A stretch of 64,000 bases of DNA from Aulosira sp. ZfuVER01 (GTDB lineage Bacteria; Cyanobacteriota; Cyanobacteriia; Cyanobacteriales; Nostocaceae), in assembly GCA_034530615.2 (NCBI GenBank), contig JAVRCV020000065.1, positions 64,001-128,000 of the forward strand, given 5' to 3'. The translations under genes and the position numbers were made by a program. This document shows, in pieces, positions 16,872 through 27,556 of the stretch. Numbering within the stretch: position 1 is the first letter of the stretch; the number at the start of each line of letters is the position of its first letter. The notes below the pieces were generated by a model. The model was not told the origin of the DNA and did no database searches. It saw only the letters and a program-made list of their open reading frames with translations.

Positions 16872-17321
16872 TTAAGGCAACGGTGGAACCGCAAAGTCAT
16901 TAAAAGAGCAAACATCGTAAGAAGAATTGGCTAATGCCCTTACCAGCTTACCGTCAAGAGTGAGCAAAGTAGCGCTTACCTGTTGCGAAAGTGCAACATA
17001 AGAAGCATCGTAGGCGGAGATTCCATAAGTTAAGGCAATAGTAACCGCATCTACCATCAAGTCCGCTGTAGAGACAACATGTAATTGTAAACTCTTGAGA
17101 GTAGCTAAATCTGCTGTAACTTTGGCTGTAGGATAAAGACCAGCACGGATGTATTTCCACAAAACGTTAGCACTTTCAATGTAAAACAAATCAGGAACAA
17201 AGAATTGATTTTGAGAATTGGCAACGTGAGACAACAGTTGATCAACTTTAGAAGATATTGGATCTGGGACAAAGTGCTTGATACACACACTGACATCTAA
17301 GACACATCTAAGAGTAGTCAT
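16872..17321 (-). CDS. PIN-domain VapC-type toxin
   Basis: VLDVSV, VPDLFYIESANVLWK, SAYDASYVALS, LLTLDGKL acidic PIN residues. Confidence 0.88.
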   Translation of the reverse strand: MTTLRCVLDVSVCIKHFVPDPISSKVDQLLSHVANSQNQFFVPDLFYIESANVLWKYIRAGLYPTAKVTADLATLKSLQLHVVSTADLMVDAVTIALTYGISAYDASYVALSQQVSATLLTLDGKLVRALANSSYDVCSFNDFAVPPLP

Positions 17322-17584
17322 CTATCCCGGTCTTCTCGAAGCATAACAGTACTATCAGGCCATTCGATATCTTTAGGAAGCTTTTCACGACGCAGACGAC
17401 TTTCCTCTAAAAGCTTGAGTACATTCTTTCGCCTTTCGTCTTCCGTTTCCTGTGTCTTTGTTTCCAAGGCATTCTGCAATATTGTAATAACTTGAGCATC
17501 AACTGAGCTATTTTCAGCCTTAGCTAACTCTTGCAGTCGTTCGTATAATTCATCAGGTATATTTAGCGGATGAAGGGTAGCCAT
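17318..17584 (-). CDS. Ribbon-helix-helix (FitA/Arc-like) antitoxin
   Basis: MATLHPLNIPDELYERLQELAKAENSS; C-terminal DSTVMLREDRDR; GGAGG RBS before ATG 17584; 4-nt overlap with the PIN gene. Confidence 0.8.
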   Translation of the reverse strand: MATLHPLNIPDELYERLQELAKAENSSVDAQVITILQNALETKTQETEDERRKNVLKLLEESRLRREKLPKDIEWPDSTVMLREDRDR

Positions 17585-17698
17585 ATCTTGACCTCCCAAA
17601 AGAATTTATTGGTAATGGTAGCACGATACAAGCAAGGATAAGAAAGGAGAATAAAAGGCAATGGTTAGCAATAAGATAAGCCGCTTCTCAGCTTGCTA

Positions 17699-18730
17699 CT
17701 AAACATCCAAACTCAACGATGTTTCTATTAATGAAAATTGTTGTTTTTTTGGCTGCGTATCTTTTTTCTCTGGTAATAGCCCAGCAGCATACAGGATTGC
17801 AATTATAGACAACACTACCATTAGCACATATAAAATTATATTACTTGTAGATTCACCAGTTATTGGATATGGGTTTACAGGTGGTACTATCACTTGAGTA
17901 ATTGATGAATTAGATGCTGTTGAAAGTATATCTAAATCTCTTAGGATTTCTTCAACTGATTGATATCTTACCTGAGATTCGTAGCGAACCATTTTAGTCA
18001 AAATACTTGCTAACCAATCACTAACGTTTGCTTTATCTCGCCAGATAACCTCTCCTAAATTATCTATTGGCAAGGATTGGGGTTCTAAACCTGTGAGTGC
18101 TTCAATTACTGTCATTCCTAATGCATAAATATCACTGTTGGGTAGAGAATGTCCTCGCATTTGCTCTACTGGAGCATAACCCTGCGTATAAATTTGAGTT
18201 CCCGGTTGTTGTAGTCTAGTATTTTGAGCAATACCTTCTTTGACTGCACCAAAGTCAATTAGAAACAAATCATCATCCTTACTTAAAATGATATTATCTG
18301 GTTTGATATCACGATGGATAACATCATTTATATGTAAAAACGCAAGAATATTTATTAATTTATCTAATATTTTTATAACTTCAGGCTCTTCTAGCTTTTG
18401 CCGATATTTTATTTCTTGACTTAAAGTATTTCCCTGAATATATTGTTGAATAAAGTAAAACTCTTGATTTTCTTCCAGATATTCAAAAAACTTAGGAATA
18501 TGTGGATATCCATTTAACTTGTGGAGAACTGTTGCTTCGCGTTGGAATAGTTCTTGAGCTTTAGTAACCTCACTTTGATTATTACTAGAGAAAGTAAAAT
18601 GCTTAACTGCATACTGAACTCCAGACTGAAACAAGTCATTCGCTAGATAAGTTCTGCTAAAACCACCTTCCCCAAGCAATGCAACAATCTCGTAACGTCC
18701 GCTGATAATTTTTGATAGCCCTGTATTCAT
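17699..18730 (-). CDS. Hanks-type Ser/Thr protein kinase with C-terminal transmembrane helix
   Basis: LGEGGFSRTY, YAVK, HRDIKPDN, IDFG, GYAPVEQ, SDIYALG; hydrophobic IILYVLMVVLSIIAILYAAGLL near the C-terminus. Confidence 0.92.
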   Translation of the reverse strand: MNTGLSKIISGRYEIVALLGEGGFSRTYLANDLFQSGVQYAVKHFTFSSNNQSEVTKAQELFQREATVLHKLNGYPHIPKFFEYLEENQEFYFIQQYIQGNTLSQEIKYRQKLEEPEVIKILDKLINILAFLHINDVIHRDIKPDNIILSKDDDLFLIDFGAVKEGIAQNTRLQQPGTQIYTQGYAPVEQMRGHSLPNSDIYALGMTVIEALTGLEPQSLPIDNLGEVIWRDKANVSDWLASILTKMVRYESQVRYQSVEEILRDLDILSTASNSSITQVIVPPVNPYPITGESTSNIILYVLMVVLSIIAILYAAGLLPEKKDTQPKKQQFSLIETSLSLDV

Positions 18731-18924
18731 GTGACACCACCGTAGCAGAGATTGTCCCAAGCAATCTTTGTCAATTAGTAACCTAGGCTGAACTGAGAAG
18801 ATAATTGACTAATTGTATTTAACGTATTTTATACTACAACAAACATGGTATAGTTAATTTTACATACTTAGAAGTTTTATTACATATTTCTCATCTATTA
18901 ATAAATTTTTGAAGTTACCAAATT

Positions 18925-20337
18925 ATGAAACAACTTTCACTTCGTTATGGTGTATTTATAATTTGCTTTGCCTTATTCTTACTTTATTTAATTACACCAT
19001 CATTTATACCTTGGTTTCCTTTTTTAATAGTTCTAGCCTTTGTGGGATTAACTGTAAAATCTACTATTGACGGTATTAGGCTAAAGAAGGCTTTACTTCA
19101 ACAAATAGATATAATAGAGCAAAAAATTCAGACTGAACTTATTCAGAAAGTTAAAGGTATTAGTAAAAATCAATATGAGAAAATTAATAAAATAGCTTTA
19201 ATAGAAAAAAGATGTAGTGAAAATCAAGAATTAAAAATTTGGGAAAGACATAAGCGCTCTTATCAATTACTTCCCAACTCCCTGTTAGCTCTTGGCTTAC
19301 TGGGGACGTTCTTAGGTATTACAATGAATTTATTCTTAATAAGTAGAAATACTGGTGGTGAACTGCAATTACAAAAAGCCTTACCAGATATTATTGGTTC
19401 AATGGCGATCGCATTCGTCAGTAGCCTGGCTGCATTAGCGGGAAGTGTGTTTCTAACAAAGTTTCACCCTACTTATGATTTAGATTTAGAGAAGGATAAA
19501 CTGCTAATTTCGTTAGAAGATTACCTTGATAATGATTTTTTCCTCTCTCAGAACCAGCCAACTGTGGCAGAAAAAATTGATGTTCTGATCAAGTCTATAG
19601 ACAACTATTCTAAAAGCTTAAACACTTTTATTACAACTCTACCGAAAAATACTCAAGATTTTCAAAATGCTGTAACAGCAGCTTCTAATATATTAAATAC
19701 ATCTGCTAATAATTTTCAGGCTGTAGCAAATCAGTCTTCGCAGTCGATGCAGACAGGCGCTAATGTTTTAAGCAATGCTACTAACAACTTAGTCAGATTA
19801 ACAACAACTTTCTCTGATATCACATCTTCTCTGCGTGACTCGACAAAATCTTTCGACAAAGCGATAGATAAATTAGAAGACTATGCAGATAATCTGCAAG
19901 ATATTGGTAAGGCTTTGGTTAATAACTCTTCACAAATCCAGAGCTTAATTCAAAACAATCAACAAAACTTGAATCAAGTGAGCGATCGCCTGGTGCAAAA
20001 TGCTAATACACTGTCAGCAACTAGCCAATCTTTCAATAATCATGTATCGCAGCTAACAACATCTTTAAGTCAGCACACAGGACAAGTTGGCAACCACAAT
20101 AATAGATTGCAGAGTTTAGCTGGAGTCATTGAAAATACTACACAGTCTTCTAATACAAATATATCTCAAGTAGTATCAGTGTTAAATCAAAATGCGTCGC
20201 TAGTAAGCAACCAAATTAATCAATTACAAAATATAGCAGAGAACATTGATCGGAATGCTCAAACAATGAAGCAAATTCAGACTAATTTTTCTGATTTATT
20301 AAATGCATTAGTACAATTACAAAAAACTGGAGGATAG
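18925..20337 (+). CDS. ZorA-like / MotA-TolQ-ExbB-type membrane protein with long helical tail
   Basis: N-terminal TMs, LLALGLLGTFLGI and MAIAFVSSLAAL channel helices, then roughly 270 aa of N/Q/S/T-rich heptad tail. Confidence 0.75.
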   Translation: MKQLSLRYGVFIICFALFLLYLITPSFIPWFPFLIVLAFVGLTVKSTIDGIRLKKALLQQIDIIEQKIQTELIQKVKGISKNQYEKINKIALIEKRCSENQELKIWERHKRSYQLLPNSLLALGLLGTFLGITMNLFLISRNTGGELQLQKALPDIIGSMAIAFVSSLAALAGSVFLTKFHPTYDLDLEKDKLLISLEDYLDNDFFLSQNQPTVAEKIDVLIKSIDNYSKSLNTFITTLPKNTQDFQNAVTAASNILNTSANNFQAVANQSSQSMQTGANVLSNATNNLVRLTTTFSDITSSLRDSTKSFDKAIDKLEDYADNLQDIGKALVNNSSQIQSLIQNNQQNLNQVSDRLVQNANTLSATSQSFNNHVSQLTTSLSQHTGQVGNHNNRLQSLAGVIENTTQSSNTNISQVVSVLNQNASLVSNQINQLQNIAENIDRNAQTMKQIQTNFSDLLNALVQLQKTGG

Positions 20338-20358
20338 CCTCAATGGAGAAATCGCAAG

Positions 20359-21081
20359 ATGCGTAGAAGAACAAGAAGTTTACCGATGAATGATACTTTT
20401 AGCATCTGGACTTCTTTTACAGACTTAATGTCTAATGCTTTTATGATTATTACCTTGCTTTTATTATTAGTAATAGCTAGAAATTCCAAAAGTAATAATT
20501 CTCAGATATCAACTGGTGTAGATGATAAACCAACAATCATTGAATTGCCAGCAGAAAAATATAATTTTGATTCAGGTAGTGCAGTTTTACCGAATAATTT
20601 GAAAAATGATATTAGTCAGAATGGTAAAAATGGCATAATTTTAAAAGAAATTGAAAATAATATAAATAAAATTGAAAGTAGTAATAAAAAAGTTGATGTT
20701 ATAGAAGTTATTGGACATACCGACGGTGAAGAGGTTGGTTATTTAAAGTGTAGTAATCAAAGGGGTGGTAATTTAGATACAAAGCTAGAAGAAGTCGCTA
20801 CTCGTAATAAAGATGTTTCTATTCTTTGTCCAGGTTCTAATGCTGATTTAGGTTTAATGCGCGCCTTAGCAGTAGTTAAAGAACTGCAAAATGTGCAACG
20901 TCAAAAAAAATCAGGACTTTTCAAACGGCTAAAGTTTCGAGCCTATTCTGCGGCGCAACTACTTCTACCAGATGATCAAGGATTTGCGCCACCAAATAGA
21001 AGCAATAATCCCCAACGTCGGCGGATCGAAATTCGCTTCGCCCAACTGGGTCAGTATAAAACCCCAGGTAATAACCGCTAA
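20359..21081 (+). CDS. ZorB-like / MotB-OmpA-type protein
   Basis: WTSFTDLMS (conserved Asp) plus one TM, FDSGSA, IEVIGHTD, LGLMRALAV, RRRIEIRF OmpA-like motifs. Confidence 0.8.
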   Translation: MRRRTRSLPMNDTFSIWTSFTDLMSNAFMIITLLLLLVIARNSKSNNSQISTGVDDKPTIIELPAEKYNFDSGSAVLPNNLKNDISQNGKNGIILKEIENNINKIESSNKKVDVIEVIGHTDGEEVGYLKCSNQRGGNLDTKLEEVATRNKDVSILCPGSNADLGLMRALAVVKELQNVQRQKKSGLFKRLKFRAYSAAQLLLPDDQGFAPPNRSNNPQRRRIEIRFAQLGQYKTPGNNR

Positions 21082-21142
21082 TAATAATTAACCTTTGAAG
21101 CTACTTCAATTGGCTCCTGTAAAGTAAAAATATGAAATTATT

Positions 21143-21928
21143 TTACAACTGTTGTGATGTGTTAATAAAATATAATATTTCTTCTCGAGTGTAAGGAGGT
21201 TTACGCATATGAATCATAGCATGACAGTTAGGGCATACAGGACGTAAGTCTTTGATGGGATCAACTTCATATTCTTCTTTTATTTCTGATAGTGGCTTTA
21301 AGTGATGTATCTGTATAAAATCTTTACCGACATCACCATAAAATCTTGCAAAATTAAAGCCACAAATATAGCAACCTAAACCATGTGTAGCTAGGCATTT
21401 CTTACGTGCTTGAGAATTACGTTCATACGTATTAACCATAATTTGAGTAGTTGCACCCTCATAATATTTCTTTGGTTCAGTTACTTCTTCAGCAATCAAA
21501 AAAAGTTCTAACTTTCTTAAGTATCTAAAATTATTGAGAAACTGAGAGATATATTTTTTGGTTTTACCTTGACCGTACTTATATAAATAAAAACCCTCTT
21601 CTTTTTCTTTGATATGTAGCTTCCACTGATCACCATCAACAGTAGGGCAATCGCCCAACCAAAGTAATTCTTTAACAGGCAATACAAAAATTTTTTCGTC
21701 AGTGTCACAAATAAATAAAATAAATAAACCATCATCCTTAAACTTATCAAAATGTCCTTTGGTAATACCAAACCGAAATTCTTGCTTTGGCAAGCTCAAT
21801 TGTGAGTACCGAGGCATGACAAATTGATAATTCCATAACTTATAGATACTTCCACTTTCATGTTGATAATTCTGATCAAGCTCTCGTAAAACTTTTGTTT
21901 GATAGAATTCTGATCTTTCATTTCTCAT
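21143..21928 (-). CDS. HNH endonuclease, McrA-like
   Basis: YERNSQARKKCL, CYIC, IQIHHLKPLS, DLRPVCPNCHAMIH. Confidence 0.88.
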   Translation of the reverse strand: MRNERSEFYQTKVLRELDQNYQHESGSIYKLWNYQFVMPRYSQLSLPKQEFRFGITKGHFDKFKDDGLFILFICDTDEKIFVLPVKELLWLGDCPTVDGDQWKLHIKEKEEGFYLYKYGQGKTKKYISQFLNNFRYLRKLELFLIAEEVTEPKKYYEGATTQIMVNTYERNSQARKKCLATHGLGCYICGFNFARFYGDVGKDFIQIHHLKPLSEIKEEYEVDPIKDLRPVCPNCHAMIHMRKPPYTREEILYFINTSQQL

Positions 21929-22120
21929 ACATCAAGATGTGATATTAATTTTAGCTTTTATTGCATTATTATTGCAAATATAGCTCTATATAGCTACTGC
22001 TCATCTATCGCTCATTCTTAATTAAAATGATTCTCTGTATATGAGTATTACTGTTTTATAAATGATATTATAGGCAATTTATATGAAAGAAAAGGAAGTT
22101 AGTAATCAACTGGAAACAAA

Positions 22121-22156
22121 TTATTTAACTATTGTTTCTGTCCAGTAAACATTCAC
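22121..22156 (-). pseudogene. Truncated RelE/ParE-like toxin remnant
   Basis: GTG overlapping the upstream stop (GTGA) reads MNVYWTETIVK*, resembling a RelE/ParE N-terminus. Confidence 0.4.
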
Positions 22157-22344
22157 TCTGGTAGTCCAAATTTTTTCCGCACTTCTTGTACAGAAATTAC
22201 ATTACTAGCTTTGCTATCTTCAAACCCAGCTTCCACTGTTTGTCGTACATAAATTTGATACATCAAATCATCCCATGTGGAATTTTCTGGTAATCTGTCA
22301 ATTAATTTATGAGCTTCTTGTTTAATCTTGATATTTTTCATCAA
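22153..22344 (-). CDS. Small putative antitoxin (addiction-module type)
   Basis: KQEAHKLIDRLPENSTWDDLMYQIYVRQTVEAG..D...VISVQEVRKKF pattern of antitoxins that precede ParE/RelE toxins. Confidence 0.65.
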   Translation of the reverse strand: MMKNIKIKQEAHKLIDRLPENSTWDDLMYQIYVRQTVEAGFEDSKASNVISVQEVRKKFGLPE

Positions 22345-22473
22345 TAGTTAACCAAATACTATTCATACAGCTTTGGATATATTGTAGATGCAAAATAGAC
22401 GCGGCATTTCATCTCTACCTATCTTCTAGAAAGGAGGCTTCTGCACTTCTATTATTAACAAAAAATGATTCAA

Positions 22474-22558
22474 CGGAGAGGGGGAGATTCGAACTCCCGG
22501 AGGTTTTAGCCTCATCCGATTTCAAGTCGGACGCAATCGACCACTCTGCCACCTCTCC
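22474..22558 (-). tRNA. trnS-UGA: tRNA-Ser (anticodon UGA)
   Basis: Reverse complement GGAGAGGTGGCAGAGTGGTCGATTGCGTCCGAC-TTGAAA-TCGGATGAGGCTAAAACCTCCGGGAGTTCGAATCTCCCCCTCTCCG; long variable arm; no encoded CCA. Confidence 0.97.
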
Positions 22559-22647
22559 AGTAAACTGTCTAGCTTGTTGCTTACCTGCTAGGTAAACGCT
22601 TTCCTAAGTTAGCACAAAAGCAGACAGATAATACTATATCTCATCAT

Positions 22648-25857: not shown

Positions 25858-27063
25858 TTACTGACCCTTCTGAGCTTTTAATTTAGCCGCCTCACTAAAC
25901 TGCTTATATAGTTGAACACGGCTTTTCGCTTCTGGATAGCGGCTATGATTTGCTGGCACCTGACTCATTAAATCCGAAGCCTCTTGCCACTTAGCAGCTA
26001 AAGCCGACCATTGATCTGAAGTTGTGGCTGCTTTACCAGATACAGAACTTTGATTAGCAATCCGCACTGCGGCTGCAAATGGGTCATCCGCCAGGGTAGA
26101 AGTAGTTTTGGTTACAGGCGGTGGAGGAGATGCTTCTGGCTTGTTCGCTGCCGATTTAGAAGCTTCTGCATATTTTTTATAGAGTTGAATGCGGGTTTGA
26201 GCTTCTGGATAGCGGCTGTGGTTTGGTGATACCTTACTCATTAAATCGGAAGCTTGCTGCCATTTAGCCCCTAGTTCTAACCTCTGCTGTGAAGTTGTGG
26301 CTGTTTTACCCAATGCAGAAGCTTGATTAGCAATCCGCACTGCGGCTGCGAATGGGTCATTAGCTGTCTCTTCAATATTTTTATTAGCAGGAATTGAGGC
26401 TTGCAGTTTTACATCGGAAGATTTAAACGTTTCTGTGGAAATTGAGAGTTCCTGTTTACCATCTAACCATGTGTAAGCGCACCAAACCAGTAAAAGAAAG
26501 GGTAAGGATAAACCAGAGACTTTGAGCAGCCCGATTAGGAAGGAACGATTTGGTATATTTTTACTCAGCAGTCTATTTTGAATTTTGTTCCTATTTCTTC
26601 TTCTGAAAACTACAGCTCGCAAAGAATTAGGCTTAGGTAAGCTTACCTGAGCTAGTTCTGTCTTAGACTCTTTGAGCTTTTGAAAATCATCAATTAGTTG
26701 CTGAATAATACTCGGTTGAGGTAAGGTAATTTCCTCTGACCAAAGCAATTGATTATCGCGATCGCGGTAAATTTCCGTCAACCAAAGTAATTGTTGTTCG
26801 CGAACAATGCGACTGTTAATATTCACCCGTCGAATGTTCCGTGGTGCAATAGACTCCAGGATTTGCCTAATTTTTTGCACTATGGTAGATTGCTCTAGCT
26901 GCTCGACTGTAGGTGCCTCACAGAGAAGTTGTAGGACGCCATCAGAAAAAATCGCTCTGGTTCTAACACCAGATGCAACTAGTTTTTCGTTCAATATTTG
27001 AATGATCGCGGCAACGCTACCTTGGTGTGCTTGCCAAGCGATATCGTTTATTCGATCTGCCAT
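25858..27063 (-). CDS. Hypothetical single-pass membrane protein with two C-terminal helical repeats
   Basis: IAWQAHQGSVAAIIQILNEKL N-terminus, central TM, two DPFAAAVRIANQ..W..ASDLM repeats. Confidence 0.8.
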   Translation of the reverse strand: MADRINDIAWQAHQGSVAAIIQILNEKLVASGVRTRAIFSDGVLQLLCEAPTVEQLEQSTIVQKIRQILESIAPRNIRRVNINSRIVREQQLLWLTEIYRDRDNQLLWSEEITLPQPSIIQQLIDDFQKLKESKTELAQVSLPKPNSLRAVVFRRRNRNKIQNRLLSKNIPNRSFLIGLLKVSGLSLPFLLLVWCAYTWLDGKQELSISTETFKSSDVKLQASIPANKNIEETANDPFAAAVRIANQASALGKTATTSQQRLELGAKWQQASDLMSKVSPNHSRYPEAQTRIQLYKKYAEASKSAANKPEASPPPPVTKTTSTLADDPFAAAVRIANQSSVSGKAATTSDQWSALAAKWQEASDLMSQVPANHSRYPEAKSRVQLYKQFSEAAKLKAQKGQ

Positions 27064-27556
27064 TTGTAGTTTAGTGATAAATTTGCCACCCTGATTTGTT
27101 AACGTACTCATTATATTTATATAGGCTAGTATGTTTATGCCAAACTTCGCCTCGTTTTTGATTTTATGAGTAAAGCTACAAGGTTGACACATAAAATCTT
27201 AAAAATAAGGACGAAATTCTATCTTTAGACAGAAGTCTTAATCTGCATCAGTTAGTGTAGTCCTGATTTCAGGTAATTGTCCACTTGTTTATAATGGAAC
27301 ATTACCTGTTTGATTACATGATATTTGCTGCTTATCATACAGCGAAAAATTATTTTTTGGAGCGATCGCTATTTACGTAAATATACTATATTTTATGTTG
27401 TAAGTTAAATATTCTCAGAGTCAATACTGAGGGAGCGTAAATGTTCTTTCAATCGTTTTTTCTGTCCTCCGCTCCCTGTTTTCTACCGCTATAAATAAAT
27501 TCACAAATCCAATAGGAGTAGTGAAATTCCAAGGGTGGCAAACCCACCCCTAATAA

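Follow-up and report, generated by a model that had tools for sequence, protein, structure and literature searches.

What does an ion-driven motor work on in a cyanobacterium that has no flagellum? The question is raised by two genes, here called A and B, in a stretch of 64,000 nucleotides from Aulosira sp. ZfuVER01 (contig JAVRCV020000065.1, positions 64,001 to 128,000), which we refer to as the window. A and B resemble ZorA and ZorB, the motor pair of Zorya systems, whose tested members are anti-phage (PMC11946911, PMC11890865), and a gene for a membrane Ser/Thr kinase diverges from them. By analogy with those motors, we propose that a wall-anchored motor of the ZorAB type and the divergent kinase may convert damage to the envelope, caused most likely by a phage or another invader, into protein phosphorylation, a reading to which we give a probability of roughly 0.45. 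The stator residues, the domain layout and the affinity to ZorAB are established directly, as are the near-strict linkage of the kinase and the lack both of linked Zorya effectors and of the tubulin and vWA genes usual in the family. The features of the module are:

17699–18730, minus strand: membrane Ser/Thr kinase (Hanks type), 343 amino acids from a conserved ATG (Pkinase, E = 1.2e-36)
18731–18924, no strand: divergent intergenic region of 194 bp, common to the kinase and A-B (alignment of 12 loci)
18925–20337, plus strand: gene A, ZorA-like stator subunit, 470 amino acids (ORF, profiles, model, alignments)
19558–20334, plus strand: cytoplasmic coiled-coil tail of A, residues 212–470, about 259 residues (hydropathy, AlphaFold2 model)
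20359–21081, plus strand: gene B, ZorB-like subunit, 240 amino acids (ORF, profiles, model, alignments)

The motor pair and its relatives

Both genes are confirmed as open reading frames (ORFs), with their starts, their ends and the gap of 21 bases given in an initial annotation made from the sequence alone. That annotation described MotA/ExbB-type helices and a long helical tail in A, and an essential Asp, a single transmembrane (TM) segment and an OmpA-like domain in B. All of these are found, as are the motifs it quoted. In A, GLLGTFLGI and AFVSSL are residues 124–132 and 163–168. Hydropathy places a hydrophobic stretch at the N-terminus (residues 2–46), followed by TM segments 115–133 and 152–180. 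In the AlphaFold2 model, which is helical throughout (pLDDT 68, pTM 0.39), the N-terminal stretch forms a hairpin of two helices, cytoplasmic helices precede the TM pair, and the tail, with a hydrophobic period of 3.54, is helical. Scaled from E. coli ZorA, in which 507 residues span 70 nm (PMC11946911), the tail would be ~36 nm long. B carries WTSFTDLMS with D22 (codon 20422–20424), GHTD (119–122), RALAV (168–172) and RRRIEI (220–225). One TM segment (19–43 by hydropathy, helix 16–45 in the model) is followed by a short spacer and an OmpA-like peptidoglycan-binding domain (model pLDDT 83). Each gene is present in a single copy. The host is non-flagellated, as had been assumed; FliG_C is not found in its genome, which is 99.99% complete, in a search whose control was detected in 4 of 14 genomes.

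Loci of this family carry the kinase (kinase type), a tubulin-like gene (tubulin type) or neither (pair-only). The TM pair of A carries P117, T128, S166 and S167. Three of these, P117, T128 and S167, align with P136, T147 and S184 of E. coli ZorA and are invariant in all 92 sequences tallied from 97 aligned (28 kinase-type, 54 tubulin-type and 10 pair-only). D22 of B is kept in 31/31 kinase-type, 59/60 tubulin-type and 19/19 pair-only sequences, that is, in 109 of the 110 linked to an A or a partner gene. Position 166 of A is Ser or Thr in 92/92 sequences; it is Thr in Shewanella ZorA and Gly in E. coli ZorA, the last TM segments reading IAFVSSL in A, IAFLTSV in Shewanella and YAFLGSA in E. 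coli. The Shewanella ZorAB complex binds Na+ (PMC11890865), and E. coli ZorAB is thought to run on H+ since it lacks the extra polar residue (PMC11890865, PMC11946911). Because S166 occupies the site of the Thr in the Na+-binding protein, the predicted ion of the A-B motor may be Na+. In the periplasmic domain of B, N161, L164 and R168 match E. coli N152, L155 and R159 by motif spacing only, and E. coli Y151 is a Ser here.

We are highly confident that A-B is a motor of the ZorAB type. The best PADLOC matches are ZorA for A (E = 2.9e-12) and ZorB1 for B (E = 1.7e-7), and ZorB1 matches 52 of 54 B members. When family profiles are compared with the PDB, the top match for both is Shewanella ZorAB (8VVN; A, 2.1e-18; B, 4.6e-9), and with the TM2-TM3 hairpin of A taken without its tail, five of five matches are ZorA chains. 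Up to 28 of 39 members of the A family have a match to ZorA models of NCBIfam, and MotA, ExbB and TolQ models are not among the 21 NCBIfam families matched by A members. The PADLOC and PDB profiles favour ZorA/ZorB over ExbBD, TolQR and MotAB, in agreement with the initial annotation. Foldseek with B ranks 8vvn_B first (E = 9.1e-5). The longest alignments of B among the top structural matches are also to ZorB (8vvn_A, 185 residues; 8vvi_B, 180; 8qyd_F, 186) and span the TM segment and the wall-binding domain, whereas the MotB and PomB matches are fragments. Three other MotA_ExbB genes of the genome exceed the Pfam cut-off, and A is none of them.

Several results weigh against this assignment. 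The PADLOC and NCBIfam scores of both proteins are all weak, and A stays far below the curated ZorA cut-offs (NF033916, 26.2 bits against 250; NF033914, 23.8 against 190). A fold search with A does not separate ZorA (Z = 10.8) from TolQ (10.4) and ExbB (9.9), and these values lie below the level that the tool treats as meaningful for helical bundles; the best Foldseek E-value for A is only 1.5e-3. By Z score, the periplasmic domains of MotB and PomB (11.3 and 10.4) stand slightly above ZorB (9.5) as matches for B.

The ZorAB motors of Zorya (8VVN, Shewanella, type I; 8QYD, E. coli, type I; 8VVI, Sulfuricurvum, type II; PMC11946911, PMC11890865, PMC8565338) share with A-B the gene order, the Pro/Thr/Ser ion ring, the Asp of B, the OmpA-like domain near the TM segment and the long helical tail of A. 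Unlike them, A-B has a tail roughly half as long as that of E. coli ZorA, an additional TM helix predicted at the N-terminus of A, and ZorA scores far below the cut-offs. It is accompanied by a dedicated membrane kinase, has no linked ZorC/D, ZorE or ZorF/G, and is stably inherited on the chromosome. The β-hairpin of ZorA is also missing from the model of the cytoplasmic part of A: the β-hairpin/Ca2+ region contains no strand in this medium-confidence monomer model, and D202 aligns with E. coli D217. The corresponding segment has 27–29 residues in the kinase lineage and 30–38 in other lineages; hairpin loss as a trait of the kinase lineage was rejected, as the segment is one residue shorter than in most tubulin-type proteins.

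With MotAB and PomAB, the pair shares the Asp, the OmpA-like periplasmic domain and an extra polar residue in the last TM segment, as in Na+-binding stators. It differs from them in the long C-terminal tail of A, the lack of FliG_C in the genome and the lack of a long MotB-type plug-linker in B, where 43–55 residues separate D22 from the wall-binding core in the kinase lineage. ExbBD and TolQR have a related three-helix core fold in the A subunit. Unlike these, A bears a tail of 259 residues and B the OmpA-like domain, which ExbD/TolR-type subunits are described as lacking (PMC12505986); the genome also encodes three MotA_ExbB proteins separately.

The divergent membrane kinase

Two points were absent from the initial annotation: the divergent membrane Ser/Thr kinase, and the operon of vWA and FtsZl1 genes in which the family is usually set. 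The ORF finder starts the kinase at a TTG (18760); the conserved ATG is used here instead. The protein consists of a kinase domain, a linker, one C-terminal TM segment (residues 292–322) and a short tail of ~20 residues, and contains the Gly loop, the VAVK-type lysine, HRD and DFG.

We consider it probable that the kinase is functionally coupled to the A-B motor. The 33 linked kinases form one clade against the 62 other kinases of the genome (support 99), and 31 of the 33 rows in the kinase-type clade of B have an adjacent kinase (support 99). We searched a sample of 201 Nostocaceae genomes (the family sample) with a profile built from 20 linked kinases, some of them from the genomes then counted, and scored 10 candidates per genome. 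The profile reaches at least 389 bits in 27 genomes, a threshold chosen after the gap was seen; the next match has 370.5 bits and no A or B within the 9 kb fetched. The kinase lies beside motor genes in 26 of the 27 carriers, within 4 kb of B in 25 and next to A at a contig break in one (G490). No kinase of this top tier is found in the 174 sampled genomes without the kinase-type A-B lineage. The trio is found in many flanking contexts that are unrelated to each other, and linkage is kept where the arrangement is reversed and the kinase is convergent and downstream (L019, G457). All three genes are under purifying selection (dN/dS 0.12–0.25; medians against 11 close loci of 0.12 for A and 0.13 for B).

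The kinase lineage also differs in its motor proteins. A cysteine pair in B (C131/C157) is present in 31/31 kinase-type sequences and in 0/60 of the tubulin type. The A tail contains 23.4% Ser and Thr in the kinase lineage, compared with 15.5% in the tubulin type, and 12.1% charged residues compared with 23.0%; by composition, this Ser/Thr-rich tail would fit a phosphorylation target. Mirror-tree correlations (kinase-A, 0.88; kinase-B, 0.86; A-B, 0.86) are confounded by shared descent and are not used as proof.

Three points count against coupling. The kinase lineage forms a single clade, so that its linkage and its tail composition together count as one evolutionary event. In one carrier (G477) the kinase is relocated, and this genome retains a tubulin-free second B. 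In 10 of the 33 linked kinases the catalytic-loop Lys is replaced by Asn (HRDINP for HRDIKP; L016, L017, L021, L023, L030, L031 and L033 are among them), and catalysis may be altered or weakened in these proteins.

The 194-bp intergenic region is a putative shared promoter. It contains an AT-rich block (18815–18890, TATTTTATACTACAA plus flanks) that is conserved in 12 close loci. A sigma-70 scan of the region gives 11 sites against 11.8 expected, and the promoter and terminator scan is at chance level. Control by NtcA was rejected: a GTA-N8-TAC site lies 101 bases upstream of A, but is found in only 4 of 29 loci. Just past the kinase, FitA-like ribbon-helix-helix and PIN genes (a VapBC-type pair, 16872–17599, minus strand) are kept in most close relatives.

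The family and its tubulin-linked sister operon

A homology search with B yields 1827 homologues, and a representative search, which comes without gene context, 1184 relatives; the closest named homologues of the pair are from Nostoc, Calothrix and Aulosira. The locus is not universally conserved in cyanobacteria. The B family is found in 66 of 401 cyanobacterial genomes, with 29 of 46 in the family of the host and 0 of 217 in twelve pooled families; in the family sample it is found in 91 of 201, including 9/9 congeners.

A sample across the phylum gave 71 B loci (73 stretches were fetched), of which 37 have Tubulin_2 upstream, 7 the kinase, 11 A-B only and 16 B only. The commonest arrangement is vWA – tubulin (FtsZl1) – A – B. 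A tubulin gene is near B in 54 genomes of the family sample and the kinase in 25, with both in 3 and neither in 15. This tally used 62 of 101 tubulin matches; a subtype of ~910 amino acids, some second copies and fragments were excluded, none of them near a B by inspection. Both architectures use motor proteins of the same families, as A and B each form one cluster across them. A concatenated tree of the A TM region and B places the kinase type in a lineage of its own, mostly Nostocales, with 100/99 support and a long stem, apart from the tubulin type of Nostocales; the tree comprises 43 loci (47 were chosen, and 4 without the anchor motif dropped), its root is not resolved and it carries a long-branch warning. 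In the window genome, Tubulin_2 is not found (control detected in 3 of 14 genomes), and tblastn places the vWA gene of the tubulin operon at 0 positions. Mutual exclusion of kinase and tubulin was considered, as the phylum sample hinted at it (Tubulin_2 in 0 of 8 kinase-type genomes); it was rejected because four genomes of the family sample (G434, G461, G487 and G477) have A-B of both types.

The tubulin form was listed by Makarova and Koonin in 2010 as the operon Ava_1847–Ava_1850, with A as 'B7, membrane-associated protein' and B as COG1360 (PMC2875224). From gene order and sizes (381, 1085, 524 and 215 amino acids), without alignment to the Ava proteins, we infer that the A and B families are B7 and COG1360. 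Clustering and trees give the operon the same A and B families as the window; unlike it, the window copy is a separate lineage that has the kinase instead, in a genome with no Tubulin_2 or vWA gene found. That paper predates Zorya, and B7 is left there as a membrane-associated protein. It proposes membrane remodelling for FtsZl1 operons, notes the vertical inheritance of cyanobacterial FtsZl1, and reports kinases that recur in such operons, for example D. radiodurans DR_0534 downstream of a MotA/OmpA pair (PMC2875224).

The vWA partner (L120:1841–2980) ends in a TM segment and an FHA-like domain (residues 268–380, score 0.82), which is a lead only; it has no Pfam or PDB sequence match. The FHA-like end hints at phospho-control of the tubulin form too. 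In a subset of tubulin-type operons, B is followed by a protein of 840–860 amino acids with no Pfam or PADLOC match (L051:8826–11339 and similar in L068, L071, L114, L125 and L134–L136), a possible fifth component or a fixed neighbour. A third sub-lineage (L046, L055, L080, L147, L159) has a partner-less A-B with a coiled-coil insert of 50–70 residues after the TM segment of B and a shorter A tail. Copies of A, B, tubulin or vWA are broken or interrupted in several genomes (L030, L033, L042, L136, L141, L173, L195), and both forms are therefore dispensable.

Proposed mechanism, a possible role in defence, and alternatives

ZorAB structures (PMC11946911, PMC11890865) suggest how such a module could work. 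Five A would surround two B in an A5B2 complex. Where the envelope is compressed or punctured, the B dimers would bind peptidoglycan, ions would flow via D22 and the ring of T128 and S167, and the A subunits would rotate as a ring together with their ~36-nm tail. Anchored in the same membrane through a single helix, the kinase might be switched by the moving motor or might phosphorylate the Ser/Thr-rich tail, and would relay the signal onward as protein phosphorylation. It would thus fill the place of the vWA/FHA-like and tubulin proteins of the commoner operon. The fullest version, a rotary envelope sensor with a receptor-like Ser/Thr kinase output, possibly Na+-driven, that in filamentous cyanobacteria reports phage puncture and elicits a response of the cell or the filament, is tentative.

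The module is not a canonical Zorya. ZorC (EH signature) and ZorD, ZorE, and ZorF/G do not recur beside the pair in the window, 79 named loci and 73 loci of the phylum sample, and no nuclease or other recognisable effector is linked to A-B. PF15611 has no match genome-wide, in a search whose control was silent too. DUF3348 (ZorF) and DUF2894 (ZorG) are not adjacent to the pair and were not found genome-wide, where one control was silent and the other detected in 1 of 14. Two further features lie downstream of B:

21143–21928, minus strand: HNH nuclease gene, variable slot cargo outside the module (HNH, E = 1.1e-5)
22473–22559, minus strand: tRNA-Ser(TGA), border of the variable slot (context)

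The HNH gene is convergent with B, unclustered among 79 other loci and without a ZorE profile match, and was rejected as the ZorE of a type II Zorya on these grounds. Among the 79 other loci scanned, 11 have the same tRNA-Ser next to the module. The slot between B and the tRNA (21082–22472) is hypervariable, with different cargo in nearly every close relative (L003, L005–L012, L029; empty in L010): HNH, GmrSD-HNH, IrrE-type, HEPN/Swt1, PDC-M09A-like and ParE proteins and a UG35 reverse transcriptase, the last with 997 amino acids and a full-length PADLOC RT_UG35 match of 1290 bits (L007:8300–11290). Recent insertion of an island was rejected, as no duplicate of the tRNA 3' end is present on the window contig (14-mer, at most 1 mismatch) and the module is at the same site in close named loci. 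About 5 kb downstream of the kinase-type module, 25858–27192 (minus strand) encodes a conserved protein without a Pfam match. A relative lies directly downstream of the tubulin-type operon in Nostoc loci (L047:8791–9744), by coincidence or from a shared ancestral site.

A role against invaders rather than in development comes out slightly ahead. Tested relatives of ZorAB act against phage, and other tubulin/vWA operons were classed as conflict systems by Kaur et al. 2020. The patchy distribution with broken copies, and the defence-type cargo of the adjacent slot in the genus, are counted for defence. So is base composition: of 3507 long ORFs, A, B and the kinase rank in the lowest 2–3% by GC content, and A-B exceeds its flanks in AT content at 19/19 kinase-type and 30/30 tubulin-type loci. 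On the opposite side stand the missing effectors, the purifying selection, and the presence of the module in every congener and at one locus in 11 close named loci. A plasmid search returned 19 weak alphaproteobacterial OmpA matches, none covering 80%, and 0 of 27 pattern matches in viral contigs were confirmed. A scan of the flanks, made without a control set, gave 80 gene families from 149 flanks, of which one was dropped as an antisense shadow of B. Only 15 of the 79 have a PADLOC match; 6 of these are in the tRNA-Ser slot of the genus, and the rest are mostly generic ATPases, a methyltransferase and Uma2. Outside the genus, the neighbours are mostly ordinary genes. Of the Zorya-related defence or envelope-sensing complex that the initial annotation envisaged, the ZorAB-type motor pair stands; the defence part is not borne out by a linked effector, by plasmid or viral carriage, or by the neighbours outside the genus.

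The same motor and kinase might instead sense wall tension or envelope remodelling in growth, desiccation or the differentiation of hormogonia, heterocysts and akinetes, an alternative that we regard as possible, if somewhat doubtful. The module is mostly single-copy and chromosomal and is found in all nine congeners, its neighbours are mostly ordinary, and purifying selection acts on its genes. Sequences in the tubulin-type tree group by lineage, like the vertically inherited cyanobacterial FtsZl1 (PMC2875224), and such a sensor agrees with the membrane remodelling proposed for FtsZl1 operons. However, the module is not found in 110 of the 201 genomes of this heterocyst-forming family and is therefore not a core developmental gene; recurrent broken copies, persistently AT-rich coding and an NtcA-like site in so few loci also speak against it.

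It is improbable that the motor is the effector and the kinase its gate, so that phosphorylation of the tail would open or lock the ion path and an ion leak would depolarise or arrest the infected filament cell. ZorAB was initially proposed to act by depolarisation (cited in PMC11946911), the module has no other linked effector, and the Ser/Thr-rich, weakly charged tail is confined to the kinase lineage. In addition, the kinase scores 395 bits against PD-T4-6, a PADLOC single-gene kinase model whose specificity is unchecked. By contrast, type I Zorya of E. coli defends the cell directly rather than by abortive infection and requires every soluble partner (PMC11946911), and a kinase with almost no outer sensor domain (~20 residues past the TM segment) suits a receiver better than a sensor.

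Still less likely, A-B could be an orphan remnant of the vWA-tubulin operon, decaying or working with unlinked partners, and the kinase a long-term neighbour without a functional tie. Partner-less loci are common (11 with A-B and 16 with B alone among 71), one chance neighbour is possible in a genome with 63 kinase ORFs, and the G477 kinase has relocated. Yet the trio moved jointly across unrelated contexts and survived inversion of the kinase, the top-tier kinase is confined, in the family sample, to genomes with this A-B lineage, and the selection on all three genes and the lineage-specific cysteine pair also speak against this reading. A divergent canonical system, either a type II Zorya with the HNH protein as ZorE or an energiser like ExbBD, TolQR or SiiAB, is largely refuted: an HNH gene does follow B, fold searches with A rank TolQ and ExbB high and a SiiA domain matches B at Z = 6.2, but the HNH gene is on the opposite strand and does not recur, the genome has its separate MotA_ExbB genes, B has an OmpA-like domain, and, of the annotated families, none of a secretion or TonB type is a recurrent neighbour of the pair.

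Motors of this type have been described before, and the 2010 listing of the tubulin-linked operon did not identify the motor in it. In the literature searched, largely without subscription papers, we found no description of a ZorAB-kinase pairing or of this family as a ZorAB-like motor. Tested ZorAB motors signal to partners that act on nucleic acids; here the same core is accompanied by a dedicated membrane kinase, and a tubulin-like GTPase and a vWA protein accompany it in sister operons. Should the coupling prove true, motor and tail would be a reusable sensor, and this would be the first case of an ion-driven motor that feeds directly into protein phosphorylation. Taken with the sister operon that couples to tubulin, it would make ZorAB a general mechanosensing chassis with exchangeable outputs. 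The three genes would also be a minimal system for how rotation of the ZorA tail becomes a biochemical signal. In organisms that lack flagella, genes of the B7 and B type still carry the annotation 'flagellar motor protein' or 'methyl-accepting chemotaxis protein', and coupling to the kinase would give a testable identity to the 'B7 + flagellar motor protein' genes, which almost half of the Nostocaceae genomes sampled contain.

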